Assembly (NCBI GenBank): GCA_030601705.1
Contig: JAUWBM010000001.1
Location: forward strand, 3,473 to 67,472
Length of the DNA stretch: 64,000 nucleotides
Origin: Thermoplasmatota archaeon
GTDB taxonomy: Archaea > Thermoplasmatota > E2 > DHVEG-1
Direction of reading: 5' to 3'
Shown here: positions 19,968 through 61,456 of the stretch, in pieces
How positions within the stretch are numbered: position 1 is the first letter of the stretch
How the letters are laid out: each line of letters starts with the position of its first letter
Notes under the pieces: model-generated
Databases searched by the model: none
What the model was told of the DNA's origin: nothing
Seen by the model: only the letters and a program-made list of their open reading frames with translations
Made by a program: the position numbers and the translations under genes

Positions 19968-20353
19968 AAGGAAGAATGATATCCCCTGGAAAGATCGAGA
20001 GCGTAGCTATTGTTTCAGAGGAACCTATTGGTTTCTATGGAGGGATAGATATAAAAACTGGTACCGTTATCGAAAAAGATCATCCACTAGAAGGGAGGTC
20101 GGTGAAGGATAAGATACTTGTTTTTCCATGCGGTAAGGGTTCGACAGTTGGATCCTATGTTATCTATGGACTAAAGAAAAATGGGGTAGCACCAAGTGGT
20201 ATTATCAACAAAGAGACAGAAACAATAGTAGCGACAGGTGTAATATTAGCAGGTATTCCATGTGTTGACCAAATAGAGATAGAAAAAATAAAAGATGGAG
20301 ACACTGTTTTATTAGATGCTGATAATGGGATAGTAACAATACAAAAAAAATAA
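19964..20353 (+). CDS. aconitase X swivel-domain subunit (DUF126; phosphomevalonate dehydratase small subunit candidate)
   Basis: ~129 aa; GKGSTVGSYVIYGLKKNGVAPSGII motif; start overlaps the stop of the large subunit. Confidence 0.8.
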   Translation: MKGRMISPGKIESVAIVSEEPIGFYGGIDIKTGTVIEKDHPLEGRSVKDKILVFPCGKGSTVGSYVIYGLKKNGVAPSGIINKETETIVATGVILAGIPCVDQIEIEKIKDGDTVLLDADNGIVTIQKK

Positions 20354-21804: not shown

Positions 21805-23091
21805 CTATAACAACGCACGCATACTCCAGGAGACACCTATTCCATTTATGGGTATTTGATGCTCCCCTTCATCATCAGACCACGACAATGTGCCTTCAAT
21901 CTCGCAAGCTCCAACTTTCATACCCATATAGGTTGGGAATTTCCATATTTTATTGTATGAATTTTCTATTTCAATATTTACATCTAATTTTGTGTTTGTT
22001 CCATACAATAATGATTGACTTATAACATAAATAGGATTTAAACTAGGTTTTGCAGTTATACTGAAATCTGCTGGCATTCTTACGAACGGAAATATCTTAT
22101 CATCTTCCCTTGTTATTTTTAGATCAACGTTTTTCAGCTCTGTTATAGTCTCCCCATTATCCGTGGTTATAAGTAAGGTACCAAACGGGTTTATTATGGA
22201 TGTTTTACTAGATATAAACTGAGGAGTTGGATAATAATTACTTTCATAGATGTTCCATCCGTTGTCCAATGTCACATGAAACCAGTCCCATCCGTTGATT
22301 AATCCTTTTGTTACAGCCTTTGGAGACCATGCATGTTCATGATGCCCAGTTCCTTTTACTATAAATTTCTCGCCATCAATTTCTACTGTACCAGTGACTT
22401 CACACCCTGTAAATAGATAATTTGCAATACTGCTTTTTGATTTATCAAACGCTCTACTACCTATTGTCCATATTGGAAGTGAACTTGTTGTATAATCCAA
22501 ATCTATGATAATTTCGTGAGTGTTGTCTATGTCTTTATCTTCAGCATGGACGTGCCAGTTTGGATATTCTCCTTCAGCCCACGAATCCTCAAATTCCACG
22601 TTTACTCCTGGAGAACTTGCTATAAGAGTGCCGGAGTTTAGAATTCCAAGATACCTCTTTTTATTGATCATTCCCCCAAACGTTTTTCCATTCTCACCAT
22701 GCAACACAACTACTAGAAGATCTGGTTTCAATGTTCCGATTAAATCACCTCGAGCCATATGATTGAAGCTTATTGACACAGACCAATCCTTTAATTCACT
22801 ATCCTCATCGTTAAATACTGCCCCAAAGTACCACCATTCCCTAGATATGCGAATTTTATCATAATGCACGCCCTCATCCTCAGGTGAAACATCTCTCCTG
22901 AAAGAGGGTATAAAAGAAGTTGGTGGAGTTGGTATTTCTGGTGGCGGAGCTGTTACATTTTCGTCCTCTGGTGGAGAAACTTCCTCCAATAGTGGTAAAG
23001 AAATATAGCCGGCTTTGTACAAAAAAAGTCCTGCAACTACTATCAATGCTACCACTATTATGGCATCAATCTTTTTTAATTTAATTTTCAT
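21805..23091 (-). CDS. membrane-anchored CrtC/AttH-like (carotenoid 1,2-hydratase family) protein
   Basis: N-terminal TM (IIVVALIVVAGLFLY) and Pro-rich linker; H..D...EWWYF...WDWFHV motifs typical of the hydroxyneurosporene synthase/AttH family. Confidence 0.6.
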   Translation of the reverse strand: MKIKLKKIDAIIVVALIVVAGLFLYKAGYISLPLLEEVSPPEDENVTAPPPEIPTPPTSFIPSFRRDVSPEDEGVHYDKIRISREWWYFGAVFNDEDSELKDWSVSISFNHMARGDLIGTLKPDLLVVVLHGENGKTFGGMINKKRYLGILNSGTLIASSPGVNVEFEDSWAEGEYPNWHVHAEDKDIDNTHEIIIDLDYTTSSLPIWTIGSRAFDKSKSSIANYLFTGCEVTGTVEIDGEKFIVKGTGHHEHAWSPKAVTKGLINGWDWFHVTLDNGWNIYESNYYPTPQFISSKTSIINPFGTLLITTDNGETITELKNVDLKITREDDKIFPFVRMPADFSITAKPSLNPIYVISQSLLYGTNTKLDVNIEIENSYNKIWKFPTYMGMKVGACEIEGTLSWSDDEGEHQIPINGIGVSWSMRALL

Positions 23092-26080: not shown

Positions 26081-27400
26081 ATGAAAATTTTGCTGGTATT
26101 TCCTAGGATTGAACACGGTGCATTAACCTGTAAAGATAAAGGGTCATGGAGTTCCATACTCTTTGGCTATCCAATTATAACACTCCCGCATCTTGCAGCA
26201 ATAACCCCGAGTAACCATATTGTCAAAATAGTCAACGAGAATTATGACACCATTGATTTTGATGAAGATGTTGACTTGGTAGGAATAACCTGTTATACTA
26301 TGACAGCGCCACGTGCGTATGAAATTGCAGATGAGTTTAGAGAACAAGGGAAAACGGTTGTATTAGGTGGATATCACCCAACAGCAATGCCAGAGGAAGC
26401 AAAACAACATGCAGATAGCATTGTAATGGGCATGGCAGAAGCGAATTGGCCAAAGACAATTAATGATTTTGAAAATGGAAAATTAAAACCCATATATGAA
26501 AGGGATCATGATTTTGATATATCTAAAGTCCCTCCGTTGAGAAGGGATCTTATTAGACATAACCCGTTCATAGGCGCAATTCAAACAACAAGAGGATGTT
26601 CTAATCGTTGTGAATTTTGTGCAATTAGCAGCTTCTGTGGAAATATGGTAAAACAAAGACCCGTCAAAGATGTTGTCGAAGAAATTAAAAATATGCCTAA
26701 TAATTTGTTTATATTTCATGATCCGCATCTCACCTTACATCGAAAATATGCAATGGAGCTCTTTAAAGAGATGATACGGCAAAAAATTCATAAGGGATGG
26801 GTAGCAAATGGAACGGCAAATATTCTTGGTAAAGCTGAAGAGAAATTTTTAGATCTAGCTCAAAAAGCTGGATGTGTCGAATGGTTCGTAGGTTTTGAAT
26901 CAGTTAATCAGGAGACATTAAATAATATCAATAAAAAACACAACAAAGTAGAAGATTTTAAAAAAATGATAAAAAGAGTCCATGATCATGGAATGACCAT
27001 CCAGGGAGGTATAATCTTTGGGTTTGACGAGGATACACCCAATATTTTTGACACAACACTTGAGACAATTAATGACTGGGATTTAGACGTGCTTGAGGTA
27101 AATATTCTTACTCCTTATCCGGGTACACCATTATTTGAAAGGTTAGACAGAGAGGGAAGGATACTTACAAGGGACTGGAGTAGATATAATCAAGTTGATG
27201 TTGTCTTTAAACCTAATAATATGACCGGAAAAGAATTATATGAGGGTGCAAGAAGAGTAGCTAAAGAATTTTATTCACCCCATAACATAGTAAAAAAATT
27301 AACACAGATTATTATGACAACTAAAAGATTCTCAGGCATCATTCCGTCTGCAACAAGTTTTGCCTTCCGACGTTATTATAAAAGGGATTTTAATTTCTGA
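26081..27400 (+). CDS. B12-binding-domain radical SAM enzyme
   Basis: N-terminal cobalamin-binding-like Rossmann (VDLVGITCYTMTAPRAYEIADEFREQGKTVVLGGYH) followed by the CSNRCEFC radical-SAM cluster motif. Confidence 0.8.
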   Translation: MKILLVFPRIEHGALTCKDKGSWSSILFGYPIITLPHLAAITPSNHIVKIVNENYDTIDFDEDVDLVGITCYTMTAPRAYEIADEFREQGKTVVLGGYHPTAMPEEAKQHADSIVMGMAEANWPKTINDFENGKLKPIYERDHDFDISKVPPLRRDLIRHNPFIGAIQTTRGCSNRCEFCAISSFCGNMVKQRPVKDVVEEIKNMPNNLFIFHDPHLTLHRKYAMELFKEMIRQKIHKGWVANGTANILGKAEEKFLDLAQKAGCVEWFVGFESVNQETLNNINKKHNKVEDFKKMIKRVHDHGMTIQGGIIFGFDEDTPNIFDTTLETINDWDLDVLEVNILTPYPGTPLFERLDREGRILTRDWSRYNQVDVVFKPNNMTGKELYEGARRVAKEFYSPHNIVKKLTQIIMTTKRFSGIIPSATSFAFRRYYKRDFNF

Positions 27401-27951: not shown

Positions 27952-28377
27952 ATTTTATCACGTCCTGAGTAGGTAATTTAGATTACCCGCCTGCTCAAGA
28001 TATGAATATTTTTCTAGAAAAAGAGGTGTTTTGGGGAAAATTAGGAAGTGACTTAAAAGGCGGGGGATTTAAACCCTCAAAGTTACATTAATCATTGGAA
28101 CGTTTAGTCCAGTTTTAGGATATCAAGTATGGGCAAACGCGATAGAAAACCCCATTAGACAAAGAGACTTTGTAAAAATAAGTAAAAATTGGATGGGTAG
28201 AGGAAAAATATTTAATCCATTTGTATTTCCACAGGATGGAGCGCGATCATTTGAAACTTTCAAAAGCCGGTTATATACTGGGACGACAAACTGGGTTGAT
28301 TGTGCTACTGGAGCTAATGAAACTGGATGTGAGATCTGGAGAGTTGATCATATTTCTTGAATATTAGAACGGATAAA

Positions 28378-29706
28378 ATGAAAAATAAATTAACAGAAGA
28401 TAAAAACATAATTTTAATTACAGTCGATTGCCTAAGAGCAGATCATCTTCACTGTATAGGTTATCCCAAGAATATTTCTCCTACAATGGATTCTCTGGCA
28501 AAAAATGGAGTTTTATTTACCAATGCTATCGCTAATGCACCATATACGCCTTATTCTATACCCTCTTTTATTACATCTAGAGTTCCGCCCGTAGAAAGAT
28601 TTAAAGAGACAATATCAAGTATTCTTAAGCAAAATGGTTATGCTACTGCTGCATTTAATCCGAATCCTATAGTTTTAACTTCTACCATAACCAGTGGAGA
28701 TAGAATCAACAAAGGTTTTGATACCTTTGATTTGCTGCTTTCTTCTAAAAATAAATATGATTTGACTATTGGAGTAATAAGACAGTGGGGGATGAAATAT
28801 TTTAGAAGAAAACTAAATGAAAACGGTTTGTTTTATAAGATAATTTATTCGATATACGATAAGGCAATAAAAAAATTCCCTGTTTTTTTATGCCCTAAGG
28901 AACATCTAATAGTTCCATCTGCTATGGAAGTAAATAACTATGCGATTGATTGGGTAGCCAAACAAAATGGTAAATTTTTCCTGTGGATTCATTATATGGA
29001 CGTTCATGAACCGTACGCTCCACCGGGATATGAAAATCAAAAAGAGATGATGTATCTTATTACAAAATATAGAGATTTTCCTAATGCGCTTACAAAACTA
29101 GAAATTCAAAAACTAATGAATCTATATGATCTTACAATAGAATATACAGATAGAGCTATAAACGATCTTATAGAAAAATTGGAGAAGTTGAATCAATTTC
29201 ATAATAGTGTTATTATAATAAGTGCCGATCATGGAGATGCATTTGGAGAACATGACAACATTCTTGGTCATGGCGGAAAATTCAAGGCTCAATTTTATGA
29301 TGAAGTTATACATGTACCATTAATAATTTATGGACATAAGGAAAAAGGAATTATCGTTGATAAAGTGGTTCAACTTTTAGATATAGCTCCTACGATCTGT
29401 GAATTAGCAAATGTTCCGATACCAGTTTGTTTTTTTGGAGAAAGTCTTTTTTCTAAATCAGAAAAGGGTGCTATTATTAACTCAAGATCATATATCGGAT
29501 ATAGAACAAAAGAATGCAAGTTGATAATTAATAAATCTAACAGCAAGAGAAATGAATTGTATGATCTCATAAACGACCCTAGAGAAAGAAGAAATATTTA
29601 TAATAAGAATAAGGAAGTTACAAAAAAGTTAGAATTGGAAATGACATCTGTTTTAAAAAAATACAAGAGAAAAAAAGAACTAATTGGGATTGAAACTCAA
29701 TTTTAA
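28378..29706 (+). CDS. sulfatase-like hydrolase/transferase (alkaline-phosphatase superfamily) lacking an obvious C/S-x-P-x-R FGly motif
   Basis: KNIILITVDCLRADHL N-terminal metal-site motif; IISADHGDAFGEHDNILGHGG C-terminal motif. ATG at 28378 is preferred over the track TTG at 28357. Confidence 0.7.
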   Translation: MKNKLTEDKNIILITVDCLRADHLHCIGYPKNISPTMDSLAKNGVLFTNAIANAPYTPYSIPSFITSRVPPVERFKETISSILKQNGYATAAFNPNPIVLTSTITSGDRINKGFDTFDLLLSSKNKYDLTIGVIRQWGMKYFRRKLNENGLFYKIIYSIYDKAIKKFPVFLCPKEHLIVPSAMEVNNYAIDWVAKQNGKFFLWIHYMDVHEPYAPPGYENQKEMMYLITKYRDFPNALTKLEIQKLMNLYDLTIEYTDRAINDLIEKLEKLNQFHNSVIIISADHGDAFGEHDNILGHGGKFKAQFYDEVIHVPLIIYGHKEKGIIVDKVVQLLDIAPTICELANVPIPVCFFGESLFSKSEKGAIINSRSYIGYRTKECKLIINKSNSKRNELYDLINDPRERRNIYNKNKEVTKKLELEMTSVLKKYKRKKELIGIETQF

Positions 29707-29790: not shown

Positions 29791-31095
29791 ATGGAAAGGA
29801 AACAAAAAAATCCATGGACACCTCAGGATGAGGGAGATCACTATCCTGTCATGAAAGAATGGTGGTGTATCGAAACCCTCTTCAAAACATTAGATGACAA
29901 CAGGAAATGGAATTTTAAGGCCTCAATGGCCTACGAAATGGAGACTCCCTCTTGCTTTATTATCTATTTTCTTTTTGACATAACTTCCAACAAGTGTGTC
30001 GTTCATAATGCACTTAATGATGACATTGAAAAACTATCTCATCAAAAAAATAAGGTTGATTTGAAATATAAAAAATCTACGATATCTGGCCTATATCCAA
30101 ATTATAATATTCATTTCGAAAATTTAAAACAAGATTTTATAATCGACATGGAATACAACGCCAAGATATTACCCCATTGGAGTGCGCAAGATTCAACAAA
30201 CGGATATCTGCCCATAGGTATCGATCATTATAGGTACGGGTGGCTTCTAAATTGCAATCTCAAGGGAACTTTAAAATTAAAAAATGAATCGCATAAAATC
30301 GAAGGTAAAGGCTATCTCGAGCGAGCCTGGGGGAATTGGTCCTACTCAAATCCTTTTAAAAGACTCTCAGGGATTAAAAAAACCGTTTTAACATATGGTC
30401 ATCTTACCAGTTGGTGGTTATCACAACATAAGCCGCGTATACCAAACCGTATTGCCTTTACAACAGAAAATAATCCCTTTGGTTACGACTGGTTCTGGGG
30501 CATATTTGATAACGACTGGAGCGTTTTCTACGGAAATTCCCTATTCTGGTTAAGTGAAGGTCCAGCATTTGGTGTATTAACGCTATTTACCGACGGAAAT
30601 AATTACTTGGAGTTTGGCGATGTGAATTTTCATTATAACAAAACCAAATATATTAAAGAACACGATATGTACTATCCAAGCGACATGACCATCACAGCAA
30701 AACTAGATGATAAAGAGATTCGATTGCGAGCTTGGCCAGTATGCGATGGTTATGAGTTTATTACTCCGTTTAACGATGGTGGATTTTACAAGGTCTTTAT
30801 TATGTGTGAGATGCCCGGACGAATTGAAGGCATCTATTACGATGGCGAAAGATCTGTGAAAATAAAGGGAGATTGTAAGATGGTACCGCAAAGACAGCCA
30901 TCCAGATTAGGTCATAACTCGCTTGCAATTAAATTTACAAAACCTCCTAAAGGAGTTGGCATTTCGTTTGATTTAAATTCACATTACTTGAAGAAAAAAA
31001 TGTTCACCGAGATACAACTGGCTCCTCGCCCAAAGCTTACATTCGATTTAAAAAAAGTTGATGTTTCTAAAATAAACAAAAAAAAAATTTCTTGA
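29791..31095 (+). CDS. CrtC/AttH-like hydratase-family protein (second paralog)
   Basis: DEGDHYPVMKEWWCIETLF and YDWFWGIF mirror the H...EWWY / WDWFH motifs of the first paralog. Confidence 0.6.
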   Translation: MERKQKNPWTPQDEGDHYPVMKEWWCIETLFKTLDDNRKWNFKASMAYEMETPSCFIIYFLFDITSNKCVVHNALNDDIEKLSHQKNKVDLKYKKSTISGLYPNYNIHFENLKQDFIIDMEYNAKILPHWSAQDSTNGYLPIGIDHYRYGWLLNCNLKGTLKLKNESHKIEGKGYLERAWGNWSYSNPFKRLSGIKKTVLTYGHLTSWWLSQHKPRIPNRIAFTTENNPFGYDWFWGIFDNDWSVFYGNSLFWLSEGPAFGVLTLFTDGNNYLEFGDVNFHYNKTKYIKEHDMYYPSDMTITAKLDDKEIRLRAWPVCDGYEFITPFNDGGFYKVFIMCEMPGRIEGIYYDGERSVKIKGDCKMVPQRQPSRLGHNSLAIKFTKPPKGVGISFDLNSHYLKKKMFTEIQLAPRPKLTFDLKKVDVSKINKKKIS

Positions 31096-31099
31096 AAAA

Positions 31100-32467
31100 T
31101 TAGTCATAAAGATTCCTGTTATCAATTAATCTTTTAGCCTTTATTGAATTTCTGTCAAAAGTATTTGGTTCAACAAGTTTTATCTGGGGTTTTGCAATGG
31201 TTTTTGAGTGTGTTATGCCATCTTTAATCTCTGGCATTTTCATTATAGCATCCGCTATTTTTTCTCGTATGGATTCGTTTATCACTTGGCTTTCAGCAAT
31301 TACGGTAATAAAGTCCTTTCCATTTTTTTTATCAAATACTACCTGATATTCAATGATTTCAGGAATATTGAAAATTGCCTCATCAAACATGTTTGTAAAA
31401 AGATTGTCACCTGCTCCAATTGGAATAAGATCATCTGATCTTCCCTTAATTTCAATTCTTTTTAGAGGAAGGCCACAATCACATATACTCGGAATTATCC
31501 TTCCAAGATCATGCGAATTATATCGAATCAAAGGCATCCCCTCTCTATCATAGGTTGTAAAAAGTAATTCTCCAATCTCTCCATCCTCCAATTGTTCACC
31601 AGTTTCAGGATCAACCACTTCAGTAAGAAAATTAGTTTCGCTAAGATGCATGCCATGTTTCTTTTCACATTCACCTGCCATCAGTAATCCAATTTCAGTG
31701 GTGCCATATCCTATAAAAACATCGGCATCCCATTCTTTTTCAATGAATTTTCTCATTGAATTAGGCGTTGGCTCAGCCCCAATAAGAAACTTTTCAATTC
31801 CGAGCCCTTTCAAATCACAGAGTTTTTCCATTTCTTTTGTAAGATAATTGACACGTGAAGAAACATCTGAGAAAATATTTGGTTTATATTCATTTAGAAT
31901 CTCTAATTCTTCCTCAACTAATAATCTCCCTGTAGCAAGTGTTAAACATCCGATAATCTCATATGCTTTATCTAGACAATATCTATTTCCCCATATCTCT
32001 GTACCATATCCCACTTCAAAGGTAAGGCGGACAATGTCTTTGTGTGTAATTCCGTACATGAGTTGCAAACCTGTTGCAGTAGAGACTGCTATCCTTTTAA
32101 TGTCATTTTTCGTAAAGTATGCTTTTTTTGGTTTACCTGTTGTACCGGCCGTCGTAAAAACCTTAATGAACCTATCCTCAGGAACTGAGAAAAAAGATCT
32201 TGGGTCATTTTGTAAGTCTATAGTATCTGTATACGGAATCTTTGTCATATCTTTAATAGATTTTATATCGCTTGGTTTAAGACCATATTTTTTAAAAAGT
32301 CTATGATAGAAAGGAGAAGTATTATATGCATACCTTAAAGATTTTTTAAGTTTTGAAAAATTATATCTATCCAAAGTTATTCTAGTCAATTTACCAAAAT
32401 ACGATTTTTTTGCAGGCTCCTGGCCATTTGATTTTTCTCTCAATCTTGACTTAACAAATGGTGCCAA
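31100..32467 (-). CDS. phenylacetate-CoA ligase / coenzyme F390 synthetase-family adenylate-forming enzyme
   Basis: PaaK-like N-terminus (SPFYHRLFKKYGLKPSDIKSIKDMTKIPYTDTIDLQ...FTTAGTTGKPK) and ANL fold length. Confidence 0.75.
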   Translation of the reverse strand: MAPFVKSRLREKSNGQEPAKKSYFGKLTRITLDRYNFSKLKKSLRYAYNTSPFYHRLFKKYGLKPSDIKSIKDMTKIPYTDTIDLQNDPRSFFSVPEDRFIKVFTTAGTTGKPKKAYFTKNDIKRIAVSTATGLQLMYGITHKDIVRLTFEVGYGTEIWGNRYCLDKAYEIIGCLTLATGRLLVEEELEILNEYKPNIFSDVSSRVNYLTKEMEKLCDLKGLGIEKFLIGAEPTPNSMRKFIEKEWDADVFIGYGTTEIGLLMAGECEKKHGMHLSETNFLTEVVDPETGEQLEDGEIGELLFTTYDREGMPLIRYNSHDLGRIIPSICDCGLPLKRIEIKGRSDDLIPIGAGDNLFTNMFDEAIFNIPEIIEYQVVFDKKNGKDFITVIAESQVINESIREKIADAIMKMPEIKDGITHSKTIAKPQIKLVEPNTFDRNSIKAKRLIDNRNLYD

Positions 32468-32944: not shown

Positions 32945-33940
32945 TTGAAGGCAAATTCAAATTCAAAATATACCATTAGAGACAAACTTTTTGCTCATTT
33001 AGAAACATGGAGACTTTATACTGTAATATGGTGTGGATTAGTTAGTTTAGCTGGATCATGCATTGCTTTTGGAGATTTTCCACCATTAAAAATTGCGTTT
33101 CTAGCTTTTTTTATACCAATGATGGGTTGGACGGCAGGATTATATTTAGCAGATTTTTTAGATAGAAAATTAGATGCTATACAAAAACCTCACAGACCCA
33201 TTCCCTCGGGTAGAATTAAACCATATGAAGCAATTGCAATAGGAGCAATATTTGCATTAACTGGTTTTATACTATCTACCCTATTAAGTCCAAATAATAT
33301 TTTACTTGTTTTTGTAGTAGCTCTATTGGTACTAGGATATGCAAAATTTTCTAAATCTCGCGGTATAGTGGGCAATTTAAATAGAGGATTTGTTACAGTT
33401 GCTACATATTTTTTTGGTGTTTTTTCTATAGGTCAATCTATTCAGGAAATACCAATATACATTTGGTTGCTTTCATTTGTATTTTTAATTCATGATACGA
33501 ACAGTAATTTAGTTGGAGCAATAAGAGATATGGAGGGAGATAAAAAAGGTGGATATATAACAATACCTGTAAAATATGGACTTAAAAAATCAATATTTAT
33601 TTCATTAATTCTAACTTTTACTTGGCTTTCCCTTGTTCTTTATCTACCGTATTATTTCAAATTTTTAAAGATTGAATTCTATCTACTAATGATAATCGAT
33701 GTTTTAATTCTATTCTCCCTTTATGTTTATTTATTCATGACAGTAAAAAATTATTCTAGAGAAAAGGCACTAAAATTCCATGAATTTTTCGTAATAGAGC
33801 GAGTAACTTTAGCATCTGCCTTAATTTTTGGAATTGCAAGTATAAACAAAGCAGGAATTATTTTTGTTATTGCACTTTTAGTTACATATCTCTCTCAATA
33901 TTTACTAAGAAAAAGATATGAGTTTAAGGAGAAAAAATGA
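32945..33940 (+). CDS. UbiA-family prenyltransferase (integral membrane)
   Basis: Multi-TM protein; Asp-rich motifs YLADFLDRKLD and NLVGAIRDMEGD; TTG start per the track. Confidence 0.8.
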   Translation: MKANSNSKYTIRDKLFAHLETWRLYTVIWCGLVSLAGSCIAFGDFPPLKIAFLAFFIPMMGWTAGLYLADFLDRKLDAIQKPHRPIPSGRIKPYEAIAIGAIFALTGFILSTLLSPNNILLVFVVALLVLGYAKFSKSRGIVGNLNRGFVTVATYFFGVFSIGQSIQEIPIYIWLLSFVFLIHDTNSNLVGAIRDMEGDKKGGYITIPVKYGLKKSIFISLILTFTWLSLVLYLPYYFKFLKIEFYLLMIIDVLILFSLYVYLFMTVKNYSREKALKFHEFFVIERVTLASALIFGIASINKAGIIFVIALLVTYLSQYLLRKRYEFKEKK

Positions 33941-34941
33941 AATATGCAGTTATTGGTCTTGGAGCTGTTGGAAGTATTGTTGGCGGTCTTCTTGCTAAAT
34001 CTGGTGAAAATGTAGTTTTAATCGGTAAAAAAAACCAGGTAGAGATAATAAAACAAAAAGGGATAAAGATAGATGGGATTGCTGGTTCGATACATGTAAA
34101 AAATGTTTCTGCATCTATTGATCTTTCATTACTTGAGGATGCGGATGTTATCCTTATATGCATAAAATCTCAAGATACAAAAAATCTTGCTTATGATTTA
34201 AAGAAACATATTAAGAAATCTGCATTAATTATTTCGTTTCAAAACGGTGTGAAAAACCAAAAGAGTTTAGAAGATATAACGGGAAATAAAGTTATTTCAA
34301 GCATCATTCTTTTCAATGCGTTATATTCAAAACCAGGTGAAGTTACCCTTGCAATTAAAGGCAAAATGTTAGTAGAAGCTGATAATTCATGTTGGGATAT
34401 CGAAAAAACTCTATTTAATTCACTTAGAAAAGAAGGATTAGATTCTGAAATTGTAGATGATATAGAAGGTTATCTTTGGAGTAAATTAATTGTCAATCTG
34501 CAAATTGCAGTGACAGCATTAACTGGTCAAACAATAAAAGAATCAACTGTTGATAAGGATTGCAGGGCAATATTAGTTGCAACAATGAAGGAAGGAATAG
34601 ATATTGTTGAACAATCAGGGATTACTCTAAAAACTTTACCAAGTATTGATCCTAGAAGTCTTATAAGAAGGATGAGTTTATTTAATTCTACTTTGCTAAA
34701 AATTGGTAGTAGACTAATGAAAATAAAAGAAAATGCTATAAACTCCATGTGGCAGAGTTTATCAAGAGGTAAACCAACTGAAATTGATTATATAAATGGA
34801 GAAATTGTAGATTTGGCTAAAAAAAATAAATTACAAGCACCAATAAACACAAAACTTGTAGAGCTGATAAAGGATGCAGAAAGAAAACACGCGACAAAAA
34901 GCTTTGAATCTTATGAACTAAAGGAACTCTTGGGAATTTAA
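33937..34941 (+). CDS. 2-dehydropantoate 2-reductase (ApbA/PanE family; 6PGD-like C-terminal domain)
   Basis: MKYAVIGLGAVGSIVGGLLAKSG Rossmann start and GKPTEIDYINGEIV C-terminal motif; start overlaps the UbiA stop. Confidence 0.8.
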   Translation: MKYAVIGLGAVGSIVGGLLAKSGENVVLIGKKNQVEIIKQKGIKIDGIAGSIHVKNVSASIDLSLLEDADVILICIKSQDTKNLAYDLKKHIKKSALIISFQNGVKNQKSLEDITGNKVISSIILFNALYSKPGEVTLAIKGKMLVEADNSCWDIEKTLFNSLRKEGLDSEIVDDIEGYLWSKLIVNLQIAVTALTGQTIKESTVDKDCRAILVATMKEGIDIVEQSGITLKTLPSIDPRSLIRRMSLFNSTLLKIGSRLMKIKENAINSMWQSLSRGKPTEIDYINGEIVDLAKKNKLQAPINTKLVELIKDAERKHATKSFESYELKELLGI

Positions 34942-34985
34942 CTCTGATACTTAATTAAAATTTGAAAAGGAGGATACCTAAAAGG

Positions 34986-35609
34986 ATGGTGAAATTTATT
35001 GGATTTTTATTGAATAAAATAGGTGTAAAATTTAATGCTCATAAATTAAAAATATTTATTGATAAAGGTTTCATTATAATTGAAAAAATTATTACCAAAC
35101 TTATCAAGTTAATTCCTTTTTATCTTGATTTTTACGAGGAAATACTTGAAAAAGAAATAATATTAGCAGATATTTCAAAAAATGATAAAATTGTTCATAT
35201 TGGATGTGGGTCCATTCCTGCTACATGCATCCTTATTACAAAAAAAACAAATGCAAGTATTATTGGAATTGAGAAAAATGAACATTCCGTAAAACACGCA
35301 AAACAATGTGTTTCTCAATTAAATCTTTCAGATAAAATTGAGATTAAACTTTCTGATGCTAGTGATTTTTCAATTAAAAATTTCGATCTCATTATTATAG
35401 CACAAGGCATAACTCCCTATAGAGAAATTTTAGAGAAAATCTCCAAGGACATTAAAAAAGATGCTCGTGTGGTTTTTAGAACAAGTTCGAAAATAAGTGG
35501 GGAGCTTTCCGAAAATGATTTGTTTTTAAAAGATATATTTAAAATAGATAAGATGGTGTATCATAAACAAAATAGTTTGTTAATTTCAATTTTGCTTCAA
35601 AAAAAATAA
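34986..35609 (+). CDS. nicotianamine-synthase-like (NAS/CntL-like) protein, short form
   Basis: DKIVHIGCGSIPATCILI resembles the NAS GSGPLPLT motif; FDLIIIAQ and DARVVFRTS resemble the NAS C-terminal block. ATG at 34986 follows a GGAGG-like motif. Confidence 0.5.
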   Translation: MVKFIGFLLNKIGVKFNAHKLKIFIDKGFIIIEKIITKLIKLIPFYLDFYEEILEKEIILADISKNDKIVHIGCGSIPATCILITKKTNASIIGIEKNEHSVKHAKQCVSQLNLSDKIEIKLSDASDFSIKNFDLIIIAQGITPYREILEKISKDIKKDARVVFRTSSKISGELSENDLFLKDIFKIDKMVYHKQNSLLISILLQKK

Positions 35610-35860
35610 TCTAATTTTTTTGGGAATATTGTCAATATTTATTTTTTATTAAAAATGTTTATATCTCTGGTGATTCCATTGTAGAAGGGGAAGGGAGATA
35701 AAGAAAAATGTTAAATGCATTACTCTCCATGGTGCTGTTTTTCCACTTTAATTTCAACTATGATATAATATGACATTTTCGGGTAAAGAGCATAAGTTCA
35801 TTTTTGTATTAAACATTAAGTATTATAAGATTGATATTTCCCCTCCGCTGAGGATGGTTT

Positions 35861-36427
35861 ATGATAAAAAAATTCCTTGACTACTTGTATTATTCATTTG
35901 AAATTTTTTCTAATTACATTCCATTCCTTGCAAAGTTATATATAAAATTTCATGCACCTTCGGTAAAAAAAGAAATCAAGATGTTGAATTTGTCATCATC
36001 TGATAGAATTCTGCATATAGGTTGTGGTGCGATACCCTATACGTCCATAGGAATATCAAGGGAAATTGATACAGAGATTGTAGGGATAGATTGCAATCCC
36101 CGTGTCGTAGATATTGCTATTGATTATCTAAAAAGATATAATCTTTCCAATATGGTTAAAATTGAGATAGGAGATGGAAAAACCTATAGTATCTCAGGTT
36201 TCGATGTTATCATACTCTCTTATGGAATCGATGGTCAGGATTTGGTTTTAAGGCACGCTATCGATTCGATGAAAAAGGGAGCAAGAATTATTTTAAGGAG
36301 ATTCACGACAGAGAGAGATAATTATATTGATTCAATTGTGAAAGAGTTCTCAGTTTGTAGTATTAAATTGCTGTTGACACAGGAATCAATTTTAATTGTT
36401 AAAAAAACCCAAACAGATATACAATGA
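35861..36427 (+). CDS. nicotianamine-synthase-like protein, second paralog
   Basis: RILHIGCGAIPYTSIGIS, FDVIILSYGIDGQD, GARIILRRFT; paralogous to 34986..35609. Confidence 0.5.
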   Translation: MIKKFLDYLYYSFEIFSNYIPFLAKLYIKFHAPSVKKEIKMLNLSSSDRILHIGCGAIPYTSIGISREIDTEIVGIDCNPRVVDIAIDYLKRYNLSNMVKIEIGDGKTYSISGFDVIILSYGIDGQDLVLRHAIDSMKKGARIILRRFTTERDNYIDSIVKEFSVCSIKLLLTQESILIVKKTQTDIQ

Positions 36428-36922
36428 CGCTTGAATGCTTACCGTAATTTCATCAAGACTGTCTCTTTATCATCTTTTATAATTGTGTCTTTTCTTCATA
36501 TTGTAGAGAAATACCAAGATTTGTATTAACGTGCTCATCACATCACTATCTATAGGATCAACAAATGTTGTGTCTATATATAGACAGACATATTCCCTTT
36601 CTCAGTTGTCTGTTAAGAGTGGTCGCCAATATTATAGTACCGACGACTGGTCAATGGCTTTTAGAGATTGGTCAAGATGTGCTGAAGGTTCCAAACATTA
36701 TAAAAAGAAGTTTTACCAACACCAACTATAACCCCTACAGAATTTTTGTCAAATTTATATGAAACACCGCAGCCAGGAAATTCTATCTGACTGAAAAATT
36801 AACTATTTGGTAAATCTTTGCTAGTTGGTCATTGATCGATATTAGAATTGAAAAAACAGCTTAGGTACTAGATATACTGATGGCAAAGATTTTAATAGGA
36901 TATTTCCATATTTTTGCCGACT

Positions 36923-37843
36923 ATGAAAAAAAATGTACTCTCGATACTGGGCATCAAAGATGAAATAGAAGAAATCATTGATTTCGGCTTTCAGTTAAAA
37001 AATGATGTGAAAAACGGAAAGAAACTGGATTATCTCCAGGGTAAAACACTGGCGTTGATATTTGAACGGGCATCTACACGAACCAGAGCTTCTTTTGAAG
37101 TAGGTATGACCCTATTAGGTGGCCATGCAGTATTTCTAAATAAAGACGACATCAAAATAGGTGAGAGAGAATCCGCTGAAGACATTGCTTTGGTTTTATC
37201 GAGATACGTAGATATCATAATGTATAGAGCGTTAAAAAAAGAAGATTTACATGAACTTGCAAAACATGCTACTGTACCTGTAATAAATGGGCTGGATATG
37301 GATGAGCATCCCTGCCAGATACTAGCTGATCTAATGACTATTAAAGAGCACAAAGGAAGATTACATGGGCTGAATTTTGTTTTCATTGGAGATGGAGATG
37401 ACAATCTAACCCATTCCTACCTTCTAGGATGTACACTTGTCGGAATGAATATTACAGTTATCTCCCATAAAAAACACTGGCCATCGGAATACTTCGTTGA
37501 CCAGGCAAATATGATTGCTGAAAAGAAAAACCTACGAGTAACTATAACAGATGATATTGATGCAATAAAAGATGCTGACATAATAACTACGGATACATGG
37601 GTATCACTCTGGTATGAAAAAGAAAGACAACAAATAATGGCTGATTTAAAAGATTATACAATAACGCAAGATATTATGAATAAAGCTAAGAAAGATGCTA
37701 TTTTCATGCATTGTATGCCCATTTATTATGGAGAAGAAGTAGTAAAAGAAGTTGCCCATGGAAAACAATCTGCGATTATCGGTGAGGCTGAAAATCGTAT
37801 GTGGGTACAAATGGCATTAATGGTTAAATTATTGAGCCAATAA
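36923..37843 (+). CDS. ornithine-carbamoyltransferase-family transcarbamylase with non-canonical second-substrate motifs
   Basis: STRTRASFE carbamoyl-phosphate motif and HPCQILADLMTI are conserved, but DTWVSLW replaces the OTC DxxxSMG and HCMP replaces HCLP. Confidence 0.8.
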   Translation: MKKNVLSILGIKDEIEEIIDFGFQLKNDVKNGKKLDYLQGKTLALIFERASTRTRASFEVGMTLLGGHAVFLNKDDIKIGERESAEDIALVLSRYVDIIMYRALKKEDLHELAKHATVPVINGLDMDEHPCQILADLMTIKEHKGRLHGLNFVFIGDGDDNLTHSYLLGCTLVGMNITVISHKKHWPSEYFVDQANMIAEKKNLRVTITDDIDAIKDADIITTDTWVSLWYEKERQQIMADLKDYTITQDIMNKAKKDAIFMHCMPIYYGEEVVKEVAHGKQSAIIGEAENRMWVQMALMVKLLSQ

Positions 37844-38004
37844 AGATATTTCTCTTCATGGTTTTTGTGGATCCTTTAGTGCGAAATAAGTTAAAACATA
37901 GTTTACAGAAGATTTTGTTATGTATCTCCTTAAATCTTCTGTTCTCTAAAATCATAATGAATGGGGCCAAGAATAATATTTTTACGGGAATACATTTCAA
38001 AAAC

Positions 38005-39027
38005 TCATACTATGTTAAAATGATAGTTAATGATCTGTAATAATACGTCTAGGAATACTAAAGTATATACCATAAGAAGATAGTTGTAGCCTTTTCTCCC
38101 AACAATTTTTCCCAACTCTCCCATGCCTTCTTTCTTTAATTTTAAGAGTTTACAATACCAAGACAGTGAGTATATCCACACTATTAGAAATAGTACCAAG
38201 AATATGGGAGAAAGCAGTGTTCTCATGTAAAGTAATACACCCAATATACCTGAAAGTACAAACATGAAGAAAGAGATTTTTGCTGCAGTTTTTTCTCCAA
38301 AAGATGTTGCATATGTTTTTACTCCCAGTTTACGATCTCCTTCTATATCGTGTATTCCTTCGGGTAAATCATGGGCATTATCTGCAAAGTATGTAAAAAG
38401 AACGAGAAGGACCATCATTTGAAAATCATAAGTATTAAATGAAATTTTATCTCCAAATATCGGAAATGTTAATGATATATTGCCAGTTTGTCCCATAGTC
38501 CAAATTGCAAAGAATCCAAAGATTGCTACTACAACCCATTGTATAGGAGTAAAAATTTCAGAGTATGCAGGTATCTTTATAATTTTTTTCAAGTATTTAT
38601 TATGAAACGCCACAAATAAGGCTACTGCTTCAACTAATATAAGACACCATATGCTAACGAGAAACGCAAATATAAACGTCATAGCCGAGAATATCAGTGC
38701 TATCACAAAGAATTTTTTTGAACTTATTCTGCCTTTAGGTAGCGGCCGATCTGGGTGAACAACAGCGTCGATATCAATATCTGTTATATCATTCCATATA
38801 AGTGCTGCAAAAAAACCTGAGTAGAGAGTTAATATCGTTAAAATAATTGTTTTTATAATCTCCCAGTCATACGCCTGTAATCCATATGCCAACATTGGTA
38901 CACTAGCAAACATGAGTACATGGCTTATCAATTCATAAATCGGAAAAGGACGCCAAGAAAAAAGGAAACTAAATGGTCCTTTGGGAGAGTTAGCTTTCAT
39001 CTTTCCCTCTAAGTGATTCTTCTTCAT
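38005..39027 (-). CDS. UbiA-family prenyltransferase (second copy; start uncertain, possibly an internal Met)
   Basis: ALIWNDITDIDIDAVVHPDRPLPKGRIS (UbiA motif I) plus a second Asp-rich motif; ~8 TM segments. Confidence 0.8.
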   Translation of the reverse strand: MKKNHLEGKMKANSPKGPFSFLFSWRPFPIYELISHVLMFASVPMLAYGLQAYDWEIIKTIILTILTLYSGFFAALIWNDITDIDIDAVVHPDRPLPKGRISSKKFFVIALIFSAMTFIFAFLVSIWCLILVEAVALFVAFHNKYLKKIIKIPAYSEIFTPIQWVVVAIFGFFAIWTMGQTGNISLTFPIFGDKISFNTYDFQMMVLLVLFTYFADNAHDLPEGIHDIEGDRKLGVKTYATSFGEKTAAKISFFMFVLSGILGVLLYMRTLLSPIFLVLFLIVWIYSLSWYCKLLKLKKEGMGELGKIVGRKGYNYLLMVYTLVFLDVLLQIINYHFNIV

Positions 39028-39307
39028 GTGTATTTGGTTCCATAGAAACTGGAAGAGAATATATCCTTTTCATAATCACAAGGATGAAACAGCAACAAAT
39101 TCCAAAACCATTTGCAACAATTATGGGGAACTTTTCTACAACAATGCCGTAGAGTAACCACAACATCATACCAACTACCAATGTCAACGGCATATAATAC
39201 GATACGTCATCAAGTTTCTTGGTTCTATAACCTCGGATCAATTGAGGTATAAAACCTAAAGAGGTTATGGCCCCTGCCATCAAACCTAACAGATCGATCG
39301 CATCCAT
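38990..39307 (-). CDS. SemiSWEET/PQ-loop family small membrane transporter
   Basis: LMAGAITSLGFIPQLIRGYRTKKLDDVS...WLLYGIVVEKFPIIVANGFG closely follows the bacterial SemiSWEET pattern (PQ motif, 3 TM). Confidence 0.65.
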   Translation of the reverse strand: MDAIDLLGLMAGAITSLGFIPQLIRGYRTKKLDDVSYYMPLTLVVGMMLWLLYGIVVEKFPIIVANGFGICCCFILVIMKRIYSLPVSMEPNTHEEESLRGKDES

Positions 39308-39369
39308 GAATGAAAACTCATCCAAAATACAATATTAAATCTTTCTGATTTCTACAAATAAGTTTTTCA

Positions 39370-39390: not shown

Positions 39391-39690
39391 TTACTTTTGG
39401 GCCCGTGGGGTAGCTTGGCATCCTTCCAGCTTGGGGTGCTGGTAACTCGAGTTCAAATCTCGACGGGCCCACTCAGAACTTTTCGAATTATTATCTGCCA
39501 TATTAGAGTTAGAATCATTACTGCCTTTCCCTTCTATAAGAGCAAGGTATCTACGGAGTTCAATATCCACAAAGGAGCTAATGTTAATTTCTTTCTCACG
39601 AGCTTGTTTTAATAAATCTTTACTAATAGTTATACCATAACTCCCGTGTTTTAGGCACATGATATTACGGAGTAATGCCCAAATCCTCAA
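39391..39690 (-). CDS. questionable ORF; the N-terminal part resembles a ribbon-helix-helix (CopG/VapB-like) DNA-binding protein, the 3' third runs antisense through tRNA-Pro
   Basis: YGITISKDLLKQAREKEINISSFVDIELRRYLALIEGK resembles RHH proteins; there is no stop before the tRNA. Confidence 0.25.
   Translation of the reverse strand: MRIWALLRNIMCLKHGSYGITISKDLLKQAREKEINISSFVDIELRRYLALIEGKGSNDSNSNMADNNSKSSEWARRDLNSSYQHPKLEGCQATPRAQK
39399..39471 (+). tRNA. tRNA-Pro (anticodon GGG)
   Basis: Cloverleaf folded by hand: acceptor gggcccg/cgggccc, anticodon stem ccagc/gctgg with loop ttGGGgt, T-arm tcgag-ttcaaat-ctcga. GC-rich island in an AT-rich context. Confidence 0.85.
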
Positions 39691-49493: not shown

Positions 49494-52400
49494 ATGCCTT
49501 TTGATGCTGAATCCATCATTGGTGGAAAAAGCGGCGTTCTCAGGGGCTTAGTTAAGGAATATAAAATAGAAATAAAAGGAAAGCCTGAATGTTCTAATGC
49601 GTGCCCAGCAGGGATCAATGTAAAGGCCTATGTAAATCTCATTGCAAACAGGAAATTCGAAGAAGCTGTAGAAGTAATACGTCAGGCTAATCCATTTCCT
49701 GCTGTCTGTGGGAGGGTCTGTACTCGACCGTGTGAAGATAGCTGCGAACATGGAGTAGAAGGAGATCCTGTTTCTATTCGTGCCTTAAAGAAGTACGCCT
49801 CTGATTATGAACTTGCCCGCCGACCTCTTGTGATGGAACCTTGTAAAACAGTTTACGACGAAAAAGTAGCAATAATTGGAGCTGGACCTGCGGGTCTTTC
49901 AGCTGCCGTAGATCTTGTACGAATGGGATATCCTGTCACTGTTTTTGAGACGAAAAAAGACCCAGGGGGAATGCTCCGCTATGCCATTCCACCATATCGT
50001 CTTCCAGATAGAATTCTAAAAAGAGAGATTGACTGGATAAAAGGGCTAGGAGTAAATATCAAAACAGGAACAAAAGTTGATGATTCTGTAACCTTATTTA
50101 AGAAAGGATATTCTGCCATACTCATTGCAACAGGTGCACCAAAATCGTTTTCTCTCGGTATTGGAGGAGAAGAATCGGAAGGAGTTATCGATGCTTTGTG
50201 GTTCTTACGGGGAATCTGTAATAATAGTCCAATAAAAATGGAAGGAAACGTAGTTGTAATCGGTGGCGGATCAACTGCGTTTGATGCTGCTAGATCTGCA
50301 ATTCGACTTGGAGTCAAGAAGGTCACATTGGCATATCGTCGAGGAATAGAAGAGATGCCTGCAGAAAGGGAAGAGGTTGAACACGCCCAAGAGGAAGGCG
50401 TTGAAATATTAACGTTAGCAATTCCCAATAAAATAATCATAAAAGGTGGGAAAGTTACAGGAGTAGAATTTCTTAAAGCAAAGCTTGGTGAGCCTGATGA
50501 ATCCGGGCGAAGAAGACCGGTTCCCATAAAAGGAAGCGAGTTCGTCCTAAACGCTGATATTATTATTCCAGCTATTGGAGCAAGACCTGATGTTGGAACA
50601 GTAGGAAATTGCAAAATTACTGCCCAAAATGGAAGGATAAACGTTAAAGATAAAGGATGTACAATAGTAAAAGGAGTTTTTGCCGCAGGTGACGTTGAAA
50701 CAGGACCATCCTCTGTGGTAAAGGCTATTGGACGTGGACATGAAGCAGCAGTCGGTATTAATACATATTTTAGAGGGGCTGAATATACTGAAATAGGAGA
50801 TTCGTCAAAATCTGTACCAATTGTCCTTGAACCACCAACATATTCTCGCTCCCTCCATTCTCCTAAAAGATTGAGGAAAGAAGAAAGGGTCGCATCATTC
50901 AATGAAGTTGAAGGATCATTTGCAGATTTTGAGATAATAGATGAAGCATCTCGATGCTTTACCTGCGGACCATGCGATGTTTGTACTGTTTGTCTTCCAA
51001 ACTGTAATCACAAACAAGTAGTTGCTCAAACAGAAGAAACAACGTTTCTTTTGAAAGTTCCTTCTGACCTATCTTCTATAGTAACTGAAAAGGGGCCATC
51101 TACAGTTAAGGTAAAAGCCAACGGAAATGAAAAATCAATGACGCTTCACAGTCTCATTCCTGCAGTTGACATAGATCGTTGTATAGGTTGTGGACGATGT
51201 GAGGAAGTATGTGCCTACAAAGCTATAAGAAATGTCCTCAAAAAAGATGGAAGAATAGTTGCTGAGGTTGTTCACAACTCATGTGCATCATGCAGCGCTT
51301 GTGTATCAGCATGTCCCTCAGGTGCTATAAGTCAAGGATATATGTCTGATAAAGAAATACTATCAAGATTATATGAGAAAAAGACACCATTTGAAGGAAT
51401 TAAGGCATTGATGAGCTACTGGAGCACTCCATCACCTGCCTTTGATTATAACGGTGTCGTTGAGGTGATGTCTGCAAGAAAACCTACGCCTTCATTTCTG
51501 ATAAGATCTCTAGCACGATCGGGTAAGGGACTTCTAGTTATCGGACCTAATGAAAAAACTGGGTCGCATTATTTACCCGGGGAAGAACATCCTCTCAATA
51601 CGATTCAACAGGCAAGGAGTTTACTGAAACTTATTGGAATTTCTCCTGATAGAATACAATACAAAGCGGTCCCCAATGGTACAAATCCATCTGGACTGTT
51701 AAAAGAATTCTCAAAATCTCTTGATAAAAAGAAACTTGTCACACTCAAAGCACCATTGCCAAAATCCATCAACGGTCCATTAGGAGAATCTATGACAATC
51801 CTAAGGATTATGGGAGCAAATCCGGATATTAAACCTTCTGATAGTGTTATTCCTATTCAACCGGTAAAATCTGGGGGCACTGCCTTTTTTGAAGGATGTC
51901 TACCGATGCTCCATTGGATTGGAGAATCTCATAAATTATTTGATCTGAGTCCGACTCGCCAGGCCATATATGGTCTTATAAAAAAAATGAAGATTGATGC
52001 TGGATTCATTGAGGGTTTTTCCTGCCCTTCAAAGGGGTTACTACAGACAAAAACTGATGGTATCAAGGAAATTGTATCTAAAATTGAATCAAATAATCTT
52101 AAATCATTTAAGAAGGTAAATCCAAAAAAATTAATCCTTGGAACTCCAGAGTCTTTCTCTTCCTTTTCAAAGGAGAAATATTTTGGAACAATATCCTCTC
52201 TTCCTGATGAACTGTTAAATGTGGCAAAAAAATCAAAAGGTTTTGCCCCTATCGAGAAAACTGTATCCATTCATCGTGCTTGTGCTATAGAAAATGATCC
52301 ATTCTATGAAACCACCAAAAAGCTTCTTGATCTTATTCCGGGGCTCACAATCGTTGAACTAAATGGGCAATGTGAACACAGAGGATTAGAGAATTTTGAT

Positions 52401-61317: not shown

Positions 61318-61406
61318 CCCGCCTTAGCTCAGTCTGGCTGGAGCGGCCGGCTGTAGACCCTACGGCCGTAACCGGCAGGTCCCCGGTTCAAATCCGGGAG
61401 GCGGGA
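61318..61406 (+). tRNA. tRNA-Tyr (anticodon GTA) with a 14-nt intron after position 37
   Basis: Acceptor cccgcct/aggcggg; anticodon stem gccgg...ccggc separated by 21 nt (7-nt loop ctGTAga plus accctacggccgta, which carries ctac complementary to the anticodon); T-arm cccgg-ttcaaat-ccggg. Confidence 0.8.
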
Positions 61407-61456
61407 CTTTTTAACATTATAGTAAATTATTTACACATATACTAGACATACGTAAC

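Follow-up and report, generated by a model that had tools for sequence, protein, structure and literature searches.

Introduction

The gene cluster described here lies in a 64,000-nucleotide stretch of DNA (the window; contig JAUWBM010000001.1) from a Thermoplasmatota archaeon, and several described systems come close to parts of it. Ted, a B12-radical-SAM (S-adenosylmethionine) tetraether desaturase, and the overlapping AttH-like hydratase Hgs have been shown experimentally to convert glycerol dialkyl glycerol tetraether (GDGT) to hydroxy-GDGT, and the accompanying search for Ted homologs required at least 500 aa (Garcia et al., bioRxiv 10.1101/2025.10.20.683597). In the digeranylgeranylglyceryl phosphate synthase (DGGGPS) of M. 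jannaschii (MjDGGGPS), Asn62, Tyr125, and Asp180 are reported to be important for geranylgeranylglyceryl phosphate (GGGP) binding or activity (PMC9385802). Nicotianamine synthases (NAS) carry a catalytic Glu/Tyr pair, Glu81/Tyr107 in MtNAS and Glu77/Tyr106 in AtNAS1 (PMC10248798, PMC10491745). Ornithine carbamoyltransferases (OTCs) are recognized by a DxxxSMG ornithine-binding loop and by Lys53 within an FxKxSxRT motif (Shi et al., 2015, PMC4581275).

Proteins resembling all these enzymes are brought together in the window, where public annotation hides the combination behind generic methyltransferase and ornithine carbamoyltransferase names. An earlier reading of the window (the original prediction) had offered as its main idea an opine- or nicotianamine-like metallophore, and as a second option an isoprenoid head group modified by aminocarboxypropyl or carbamoyl groups. 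Here we show that the genes belong to a recurrent set, and we favor, with moderate confidence, a role of the cluster in making or remodeling isoprenoid ether lipids over the synthesis of a soluble metal chelator. Neither a published description of this gene combination nor a characterized system of this composition was found in the literature searched, in agreement with the original prediction.

The core gene set recurs in rearranged versions

Loci were collected from two starting points. For the NAS-seeded set, context look-ups of homologs of the short NAS-like proteins, together with a scan of one genome per species, yielded 26 loci, and families were counted over 27 sources, namely the window plus these 26. 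For the OTC-seeded set, a metagenome scan starting from the OTC-like protein alone confirmed 511 relatives, and 80 loci were kept; distances around the OTC-like gene were counted only in loci with enough flank. The loci were mapped with a simple open reading frame (ORF) caller and BLAST to the window proteins.

A common core recurs in these loci in rearranged versions: two DGGGPS-like UbiA membrane prenyltransferases, one or two short enzymes resembling NAS and CntL (NAS-like), an OTC-branch carbamoyltransferase (OTC-like), proteins of the AttH/CrtC fold (AttH-like), and B12-radical-SAM enzymes. NAS-like genes were present in all 27 NAS-seeded sources, UbiA in 19, and a PaaK-like ligase and a B12-radical-SAM gene in 18 each, followed by the 428- to 438-aa AttH-like family (14, with two copies in the window), a short-chain dehydrogenase/reductase (SDR; 10), a response-regulator pair (9), a class I methyltransferase (8), the OTC-like gene (7), an ApbA-type reductase (6), and a SemiSWEET transporter (5).

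The search seeded with the OTC-like protein arrived at the same gene set, as seen in three long contigs. UbiA lay at most 1.5 kb downstream of the OTC-like gene in 47 of 52 loci and within 3 kb in 25 of 25, while a NAS-like gene lay within 3 kb in 24 of 25. An AttH-like gene was found within 5 kb in 13 of 17 loci, a B12-radical-SAM gene within 8 kb in 10 of 12, and SemiSWEET at most 4 kb downstream in 14 of 30. The OTC-like and UbiA genes were convergent, with a gap of no more than 300 bp, in 57 of 64 loci, and this is also their arrangement in the window. Orthologs of the second NAS-like protein adjoin the OTC-like gene and UbiA-2 in L023, L025, and L026 as well as in many OTC-seeded loci. 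Gene order and orientation vary between loci, so clustering appears to have been maintained and not merely inherited. Co-occurrence across genomes had been proposed as a check by the original prediction; with recovery from both searches, the gene set emerges as a conserved module and not a chance adjacency.

All 21 loci from the species-genome scan seeded with the NAS-like protein were from Thermoplasmatota, and relatives of the cluster proteins likewise came from Thermoplasmatota metagenome-assembled genomes (MAGs), with one labeled exception. By these searches, the cluster is confined to Thermoplasmatota of sediments that are uncultured, among them genomes of the Marine Benthic Group D type. 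The exception is a protein sharing at least 90% identity with the first NAS-like protein that was deposited from a Promethearchaeota-labeled MAG (MHA1192999.1; cluster P0001, P0446), whose label may be a binning or labeling error. Two variations on the gene set were observed. A pair of single-domain response-regulator genes, absent from the window, precedes UbiA in the nine sources counted above (L002, L006, L014, L018, L023, and L026 among them). One sub-lineage (L001, L004, L005, L007) adds genes for a macrolide-type glycosyltransferase, a Methyltransf_24 protein, and a radical SAM/SPASM protein downstream of the NAS-like gene, which suggests that it makes a glycosylated variant of the product.

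DGGGPS-like prenyltransferases and candidate tail-modifying enzymes

ORFs of the window were assigned by Pfam and NCBIfam scans. Both UbiA proteins are closest to DGGGPS, among solved structures as well as curated families, and not to aromatic prenyltransferases. For UbiA-1 (32945-33940, forward strand; Pfam UbiA 119 bits), MjDGGGPS is the best solved relative and aligns over the full length (4.1e-26); for the second, more divergent UbiA-2 (ORF 38005-39027, reverse strand, likely start 39000; Pfam UbiA 101.7 bits), it matches at 2e-11. Both stay below the NCBIfam DGGGPS equivalog cutoff of 296, with 124.7 bits for UbiA-1 and 69.6 bits for UbiA-2. At the position of MjDGGGPS Asn62, UbiA-1 has Ala or Ser (38 of 38 orthologs), while UbiA-2 keeps Asn; Tyr125 is kept in UbiA-1 and is His in UbiA-2; and Asp180 is replaced by Ala in UbiA-1 and by Gly in UbiA-2.

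The B12-radical-SAM gene (26081-27400, forward strand) encodes 439 aa with Pfam B12-binding, Radical_SAM, and DUF4070 domains, and its best NCBIfam matches are BchE, HpnJ, a lipid B12-radical-SAM enzyme, and HpnR, all below cutoff. The two AttH-like paralogs are a 434-aa protein (29791-31095, forward strand) and a 428-aa protein (21805-23091, reverse strand) that shows a weak Pfam CrtC lipocalin match and falls into the same BLAST family (F4). A profile of the 434-aa family found no match among PDB sequences. Fold comparison identified the family as a hydratase-like double lipocalin, with AttH (2ich, 29.6) and kievitone hydratase (7a0q, 27.1) ahead of Diels-Alderases (about 23) and 25-phosphosteroid lyase (21.8). 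The substrates of these enzymes are prenyl or other hydrophobic chains. In 10 of 11 NAS-seeded loci, an AttH-like gene directly adjoined a B12-radical-SAM gene on the same strand, and in L001, L004, L007, and L012 the cluster is flanked by orthologs of the 428-aa protein (88-93% identity). Next to UbiA-1 lies the gene of a PaaK/F390-synthetase-like adenylate-forming enzyme (31100-32467, reverse strand; Pfam AMP-binding and AMP-binding_C_2), which scores 225 bits with NCBIfam PaaK and 221 bits with the DVU_1553 family, both below cutoff.

The short proteins resemble NAS and CntL more than methyltransferases

NAS-like 1 (ORF 34962-35609, 215 aa, forward strand) probably starts at the ATG at 34986, since its homologs are 207 aa long, and NAS-like 2 (35861-36427, forward strand) has 188 aa. 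The original prediction had described the two as paralogs with NAS-type motifs, and they are indeed paralogs (36% identity, E 2e-26) whose motifs extend through the family. Across 133 members, GxGxxPxT, Glu57, Asp96, Arg165, an acidic residue at position 33, and Tyr46 are near-invariant, and Glu57 and Arg165 each have the same residue aligned to them in CntL as well as in MtNAS. Pfam NAS (PF03059) gives 31.5 bits for NAS-like 1, above the gathering score of 27.1, and 21.6 bits for NAS-like 2, below it. The family comprises, at 50% clustering, 127 representatives with E of at most 1e-30 and 861 with E of at most 1e-10.

The original prediction had asked whether these proteins score as ordinary methyltransferases, and both profile and fold place CntL and MtNAS ahead of the best methyltransferase. 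When a profile of 18 members was compared with all PDB sequences, CntL came first (7.3e-17, 64.8 bits) and MtNAS second (5.8e-11, 45.5 bits), with the best methyltransferase at 4.3e-7 and 32.9 bits; NAS-like 2 by itself also had CntL as its best PDB sequence match (7e-6). An AlphaFold model of a NAS-like protein (predicted local distance difference test score 86) had MtNAS and CntL as its top Foldseek matches. The public label for these proteins is "class I SAM-dependent methyltransferase".

In NAS enzymes, an N-terminal helical domain of about 100 aa closes the reaction chamber over the Rossmann domain. The NAS-like proteins are some 70-90 residues shorter and have three helices (about 60 residues) before the Rossmann fold. 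The acidic residue 33 (130 of 133 members) and Tyr46 (122 of 133) both lie in these helices. Tyr46 aligns to CntL Tyr109 by sequence, but the Glu-Tyr spacing is 13 and not 25-29. On balance, the enzymes are likely to transfer an alkyl rather than a methyl group from SAM. The mean hydrophobic moment of their N-terminus (0.43-0.71) is compatible with membrane association; it is not diagnostic and was left unused as evidence. Among distant members of the family, one adjoins an LPG_synthase_TM membrane protein (L031 10001-11599), and another lies near a DUF3419/BtaA-family gene, two B12-radical-SAM genes, and a polyprenyl synthase (L032 5595-10684).

The carbamoyltransferase belongs to a distinct OTC-branch subfamily

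The OTC-like gene (ORF 36914-37843, forward strand, likely start 36923) encodes a protein about 45% identical to P. furiosus OTC, and it carries its public "ornithine carbamoyltransferase" label because it passes TIGR00658 (338 bits; cutoff 280.85). This protein and its orthologs keep a complete carbamoyl-phosphate site, with STRTR, HPCQ (HPxQ), and AENR, which supplies the Arg of the C-terminal ENR. The second-substrate side is altered: DTWVSLW stands in place of DxxxSMG (DTW(V/I)S(L/Y)WYE with the orthologs included), FERASTRT in place of FxKxSxRT, so that Lys53 becomes Arg, and HCMP in place of HCLP. The protein and its orthologs also have a one-residue insertion in GDG(D/N)DN, before Asn167.

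These changes were counted in the 120 closest protein clusters, all with at least 68% identity. The substrate loop reads S(L/F/Y)W in 117, SIW in two, and SAY in one; Arg replaces Lys53 in all 120, and HCMP is found in 119. The altered substrate motifs pointed out by the original prediction are thus a property of the whole group, in which DxxxSMG and Lys53 are lost throughout while the carbamoyl-phosphate motifs are kept. Neither the motif nor the C-terminal extension of putrescine carbamoyltransferase (PTCase) was found when looked for in the protein, and its motifs are also unlike those of PTCase, DPTCase, and DBTCase. Judged from their motifs, these proteins form an OTC-branch subfamily of their own, whose second-substrate loop has changed and become more aromatic.

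The reductase occupies a variable slot beside UbiA-1

The reductase gene (33937-34941, forward strand; Pfam ApbA and ApbA_C; TIGR00745 204 bits, cutoff 141) overlaps UbiA-1 by 4 bp, indicating translational coupling. The original prediction had assigned it to the ApbA/PanE family and proposed it as a partner of the NAS-like enzymes in the manner of opine dehydrogenases. Gene and family were upheld; the partner role was not. The protein aligns with solved ketopantoate reductases (KPRs), including a Thermococcus enzyme. We take the KPR catalytic residues to be Asn98, Lys176, Asn180, Ser244, and Glu256 (E. coli PanE numbering), and the KPR motifs QNG, WsKLivN (WxKLxxN), SMwQ (SMxQ), and EIDYING are kept. 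In the alignment to solved structures, the opine-dehydrogenase match was a weak one to CENDH (1bg6), limited to the N-terminal Rossmann part, with none in the C-terminal part.

The gene right after UbiA-1 is of the ApbA type in six loci of the 27 sources and an extended SDR, resembling the lipid SDRs OleD and HpnA, in 10. UbiA and the reductase lie on the same strand and no more than 100 bp apart in 33 of 33 loci, and the ApbA type is absent from all 80 OTC-seeded loci. From this coupling and this absence we conclude that a reductase belongs to the module, while the KPR type is a lineage-specific replacement, not a core member and not a CntM-like partner. The 4-bp overlap and the SDR replacement in relatives argue for a role of the reductase in the cluster. 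A KPR-type reductase outside the core weakens the opine-metallophore reading.

Extent of the cluster and surrounding genes

The original prediction had delimited a unit from UbiA to UbiA plus SemiSWEET (32945-39027 and beyond). All ORFs of 32945-39027 were found at their coordinates, but the cluster reaches further upstream. Its left end is at least at 26081 and probably at 21805, and the genes of the original prediction form the right-hand half of a cluster of about 13-17 kb (window positions of about 21.8 or 26.1 to 39.3 kb). On the right, a 3-TM (transmembrane) SemiSWEET/PQ-loop transporter gene (38990-39325, reverse strand; NCBIfam SemiSWEET_2 81.5 bits, cutoff 80; Pfam MtN3_slv and PQ-loop) overlaps the start of UbiA-2, SemiSWEET and UbiA are arranged alike in L001, L004, and L007, and tRNA-Pro (39399-39472) marks the boundary. 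A gene for a sulfatase/alkaline-phosphatase-superfamily protein (28357-29706, forward strand; Pfam Sulfatase, E 1e-43) is a peripheral, variable member that, among the mapped loci, was seen elsewhere only in L011. The gaps of 250 bp between the NAS-like genes and of 486 bp (36428-36913) between NAS-like 2 and the OTC-like gene hold short unsupported ORFs only, and Rfam and tRNA scans detected no RNA elements inside the cluster, these two gaps included.

Between the 428-aa AttH-like gene and the B12-radical-SAM gene, the segment 23235-26022 encodes an HD-domain protein, a CitF-like protein, and a truncated citrate-synthase C-terminal protein. This block, a possible part of the cluster, is seen again in many loci (L012, L027, L029, L055-L063, and others) and is swapped for an ATP-citrate-lyase-like pair in some. 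Archaeal modified mevalonate pathway genes (GHMP kinase, UbiD-type decarboxylase, AcnX large subunit) lie 6-10 kb upstream (16231-20353), and a 129-aa ORF after the AcnX large subunit (19964-20353) is presumably the small subunit; mevalonate-pathway genes also neighbor the cluster in L029 and L088. Elsewhere in the window, the source archaeon has an unsplit RpoB, and three large flavin/iron-sulfur oxidoreductase genes, the first with an FlpD-like domain and all unrelated to the cluster, directly follow the RNA polymerase/NusA operon (49494-55854). A 90-nt tRNA gene (61318-61407; Rfam tRNA 51.7 bits), to which ARAGORN assigned a four-base anticodon (gtag) and no amino acid, may contain an intron.

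Discussion

Several lines of evidence give the cluster a lipid character. Its UbiA proteins are nearest to DGGGPS, an O-prenylating lipid synthase, and not to aromatic prenyltransferases; the pairing of AttH-like and B12-radical-SAM genes parallels Ted/Hgs; the SDR that can take the reductase slot resembles OleD and HpnA; mevalonate genes lie upstream; and remote NAS-like members stand beside LPG_synthase_TM or BtaA-family genes. With DGGGPS-like UbiA proteins, AttH-fold proteins, and B12-radical-SAM enzymes as neighbors, the modified isoprenoid head group that the original prediction had placed second fits better than its main idea, the metallophore, which lost ground to a KPR-type, non-conserved reductase and to a lack of metallophore transporters. 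Taken together, the evidence supports a conserved tailoring cluster for isoprenoids (ether lipids), an archaeal lipid or isoprenoid biosynthetic gene cluster not described before, and there is a realistic chance that its product is a new lipid class.

From family, fold, motifs, and neighborhood, we infer the following roles for the members of such a lipid pathway. The UbiA proteins would join a polyprenyl diphosphate through a C-O (ether) bond to a hydroxyl acceptor different from the standard GGGP. The NAS-like enzymes would use SAM as alkyl donor, most likely of a 3-amino-3-carboxypropyl group, releasing methylthioadenosine, with the UbiA substrate or product as acceptor; the amino-acid-type polar group formed in this step would be functionally comparable to that made by BtaA in betaine-lipid synthesis. 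The carbamoyltransferase could then use carbamoyl phosphate to convert an amine of the polar group to a ureido group; its aromatic S(L/F/Y)WY loop, in the place of SMGQ, would accommodate a bulkier or more hydrophobic second substrate. By analogy to Ted/Hgs, the B12-radical-SAM and AttH-like proteins may act on the isoprenoid tails, through desaturation or methylation and then hydration to a tertiary alcohol. The reductase would reduce a keto intermediate, and the PQ-loop protein might move a precursor or head group across the membrane.

Taken to its most specific form, this scheme would yield a new archaeal polar lipid class in abundant sediment Thermoplasmatota: an isoprenoid ether core carrying a SAM-derived 3-amino-3-carboxypropyl head group (homoserine-ether or aminobutyrate-type), which the NAS-like enzymes would attach and which would next be carbamoylated by what would be the first transcarbamylase known to act on lipids. 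Such a lipid would be an independently evolved counterpart of betaine lipids, possibly phosphorus-free and possibly metal-binding; we consider this exact product rather unlikely. Synthesis of butanetriol-GDGT (BDGT) was also considered as the main idea and rejected, since BDGT needs backbone methylation only and the pattern-limited genome scan returned no locus from any named Methanomassiliicoccus genome.

A number of observations weigh against a lipid pathway of this kind. The NAS-like proteins are missing about half of the NAS N-terminal domain, and residue 33 and Tyr46 are at most candidate equivalents of MtNAS Glu81/Tyr107, so that these enzymes may turn out to be methyltransferases. With a score above the OTC equivalog cutoff and with Asp231 and Asn167 kept, the OTC-like protein could still use ornithine. 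UbiA-1, aligned over its full length with MjDGGGPS, could be the ordinary DGGGPS of the lineage. In the window, the B12-radical-SAM and AttH-like genes are one to three genes apart, and the proposed likeness to Ted (DRO69_02625)/Hgs is one of gene arrangement and fold. Furthermore, no close Hgs homologs were reported in Thermoplasmatota (bioRxiv 10.1101/2025.10.20.683597), and because every locus belongs to a single phylum, some of the synteny is due to common descent.

Among the rivals to an isoprenoid ether lipid, the most plausible is a prenylated small molecule, in which the NAS-like enzymes, the carbamoyltransferase, the reductase, and the PaaK-like ligase, all soluble, build an amino-acid-derived polar moiety that UbiA prenylates; the outcome would be a lipid-anchored chelator, a redox-active cofactor, or a terpenoid-amino acid conjugate for secretion. 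Soluble amino or keto acids are the usual substrates of NAS/CntL relatives, OTC-family enzymes, and KPRs, 18 of 27 sources have a PaaK-like ligase, and a SemiSWEET/PQ-loop transporter is coupled to UbiA-2. However, the UbiA proteins are DGGGPS-like and not of the MenA/UbiA/aromatic type, the cluster holds no aromatic-precursor genes or exporters, and its tail-modifying enzyme types (B12-radical-SAM, AttH-like) point to long isoprenoid chains, leaving such a product doubtful. Next comes a soluble opine/nicotianamine-type metallophore, with the NAS-like enzymes adding aminobutyrate units to an amino acid and the KPR-like reductase serving as opine dehydrogenase. That CntL and MtNAS are the closest solved structures to the NAS-like proteins speaks for it, as do the 6-phosphogluconate dehydrogenase-like fold class that the KPR C-terminal domain shares with opine dehydrogenases and the weak N-terminal match to CENDH. 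We nevertheless regard a metallophore as very improbable. The reductase keeps the KPR catalytic set without an opine-dehydrogenase C-terminal match and is absent from 80 of 80 OTC-seeded loci, with an SDR or nothing in its place in most NAS-seeded loci, and the partners that never vary are membrane prenyltransferases. In the NAS-seeded context look-ups and the OTC-seeded long contigs, neither metallophore transporters of the ABC or MFS type nor metal transporters or regulators lay beside the cluster.

Least plausible, by a little, is coincidence, that is, housekeeping genes (argF, panE, a normal DGGGPS, and ordinary methyltransferases) that happen to be syntenic within one lineage. The OTC-like protein and the reductase do pass the NCBIfam cutoffs for OTC and the PanE subfamily, public annotation carries these names, and a single phylum accounts for all loci. 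Against this stand the loss of DxxxSMG and Lys53 in all 120 homolog clusters of the OTC-like subfamily, the nearly constant position of its gene beside UbiA and a NAS-like gene despite rearrangements, the non-orthologous replacement in the reductase slot, and the departure of the UbiA types from MjDGGGPS at residues on which GGGP binding depends.

Few uncultured archaea in sediments are as abundant as Thermoplasmatota of the Marine Benthic Group D type, whose lipids serve as biomarkers without known sources or pathways. The cluster brings together a previously unnoticed short NAS-like family, a mis-annotated carbamoyltransferase subfamily whose second-substrate site is new, and lipid-type prenyltransferases with tail-modifying enzymes, and it points to specific genes that could account for head groups or core modifications so far unexplained in sediment lipidomes. 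It would extend the logic of a B12-radical-SAM/AttH pair to a phylum reported to be without Hgs. It also shows that an "OTC" annotation in these archaea may mislead inferences on the arginine pathway.

The cluster resembles known systems in some features and departs from them in others. A B12-radical-SAM gene stands beside a gene of the AttH/CrtC fold, here confirmed, in an archaeal genome, as in Ted/Hgs, but the B12-radical-SAM protein has about 439 aa where the Ted search required at least 500, and the pair has UbiA, NAS-like, and carbamoyltransferase genes around it, none of which occur at the Ted/Hgs locus. DGGGPS (MjDGGGPS, 6M31) is the closest solved relative of both UbiA proteins, which largely keep Asp-rich motifs 1 and 3 but fall below the equivalog cutoff, with Asn62 lost in UbiA-1, Tyr125 in UbiA-2, and Asp180 in both. 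The NAS-like enzymes have their best sequence and fold matches in MtNAS and S. aureus CntL, with which they have GxGxxPxT, Glu57, and Arg165 in common, but they measure about 207 aa, against about 270-300, and have only about 60 residues of N-terminal helices. Unlike cntKLM opine-metallophore clusters, the genes come without an opine dehydrogenase or metallophore transporters and are paired with membrane prenyltransferases. The OTC-like protein is akin to ornithine and putrescine carbamoyltransferases in its identity of about 45% to the P. furiosus enzyme, its carbamoyl-phosphate motifs, and its equivalents of Asp231 and Asn167. It differs from OTC in having DxWxS(L/F/Y)W for DxxxSMG, Arg for Lys53, HCMP for HCLP, and the insertion before Asn167, and from PTCase in being without the PTCase motif and C-terminal extension. 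The BtaA/BtaB betaine-lipid pathway offers a possible functional analogy only, in that a SAM-derived C4 amino-acid group may end up on a membrane lipid: BtaA is from DUF3419, an unrelated family, and has no homolog in the window, while a class I methyltransferase stands beside the NAS-like gene in eight relatives, which may be compared to the N-methyltransferase of that pathway.

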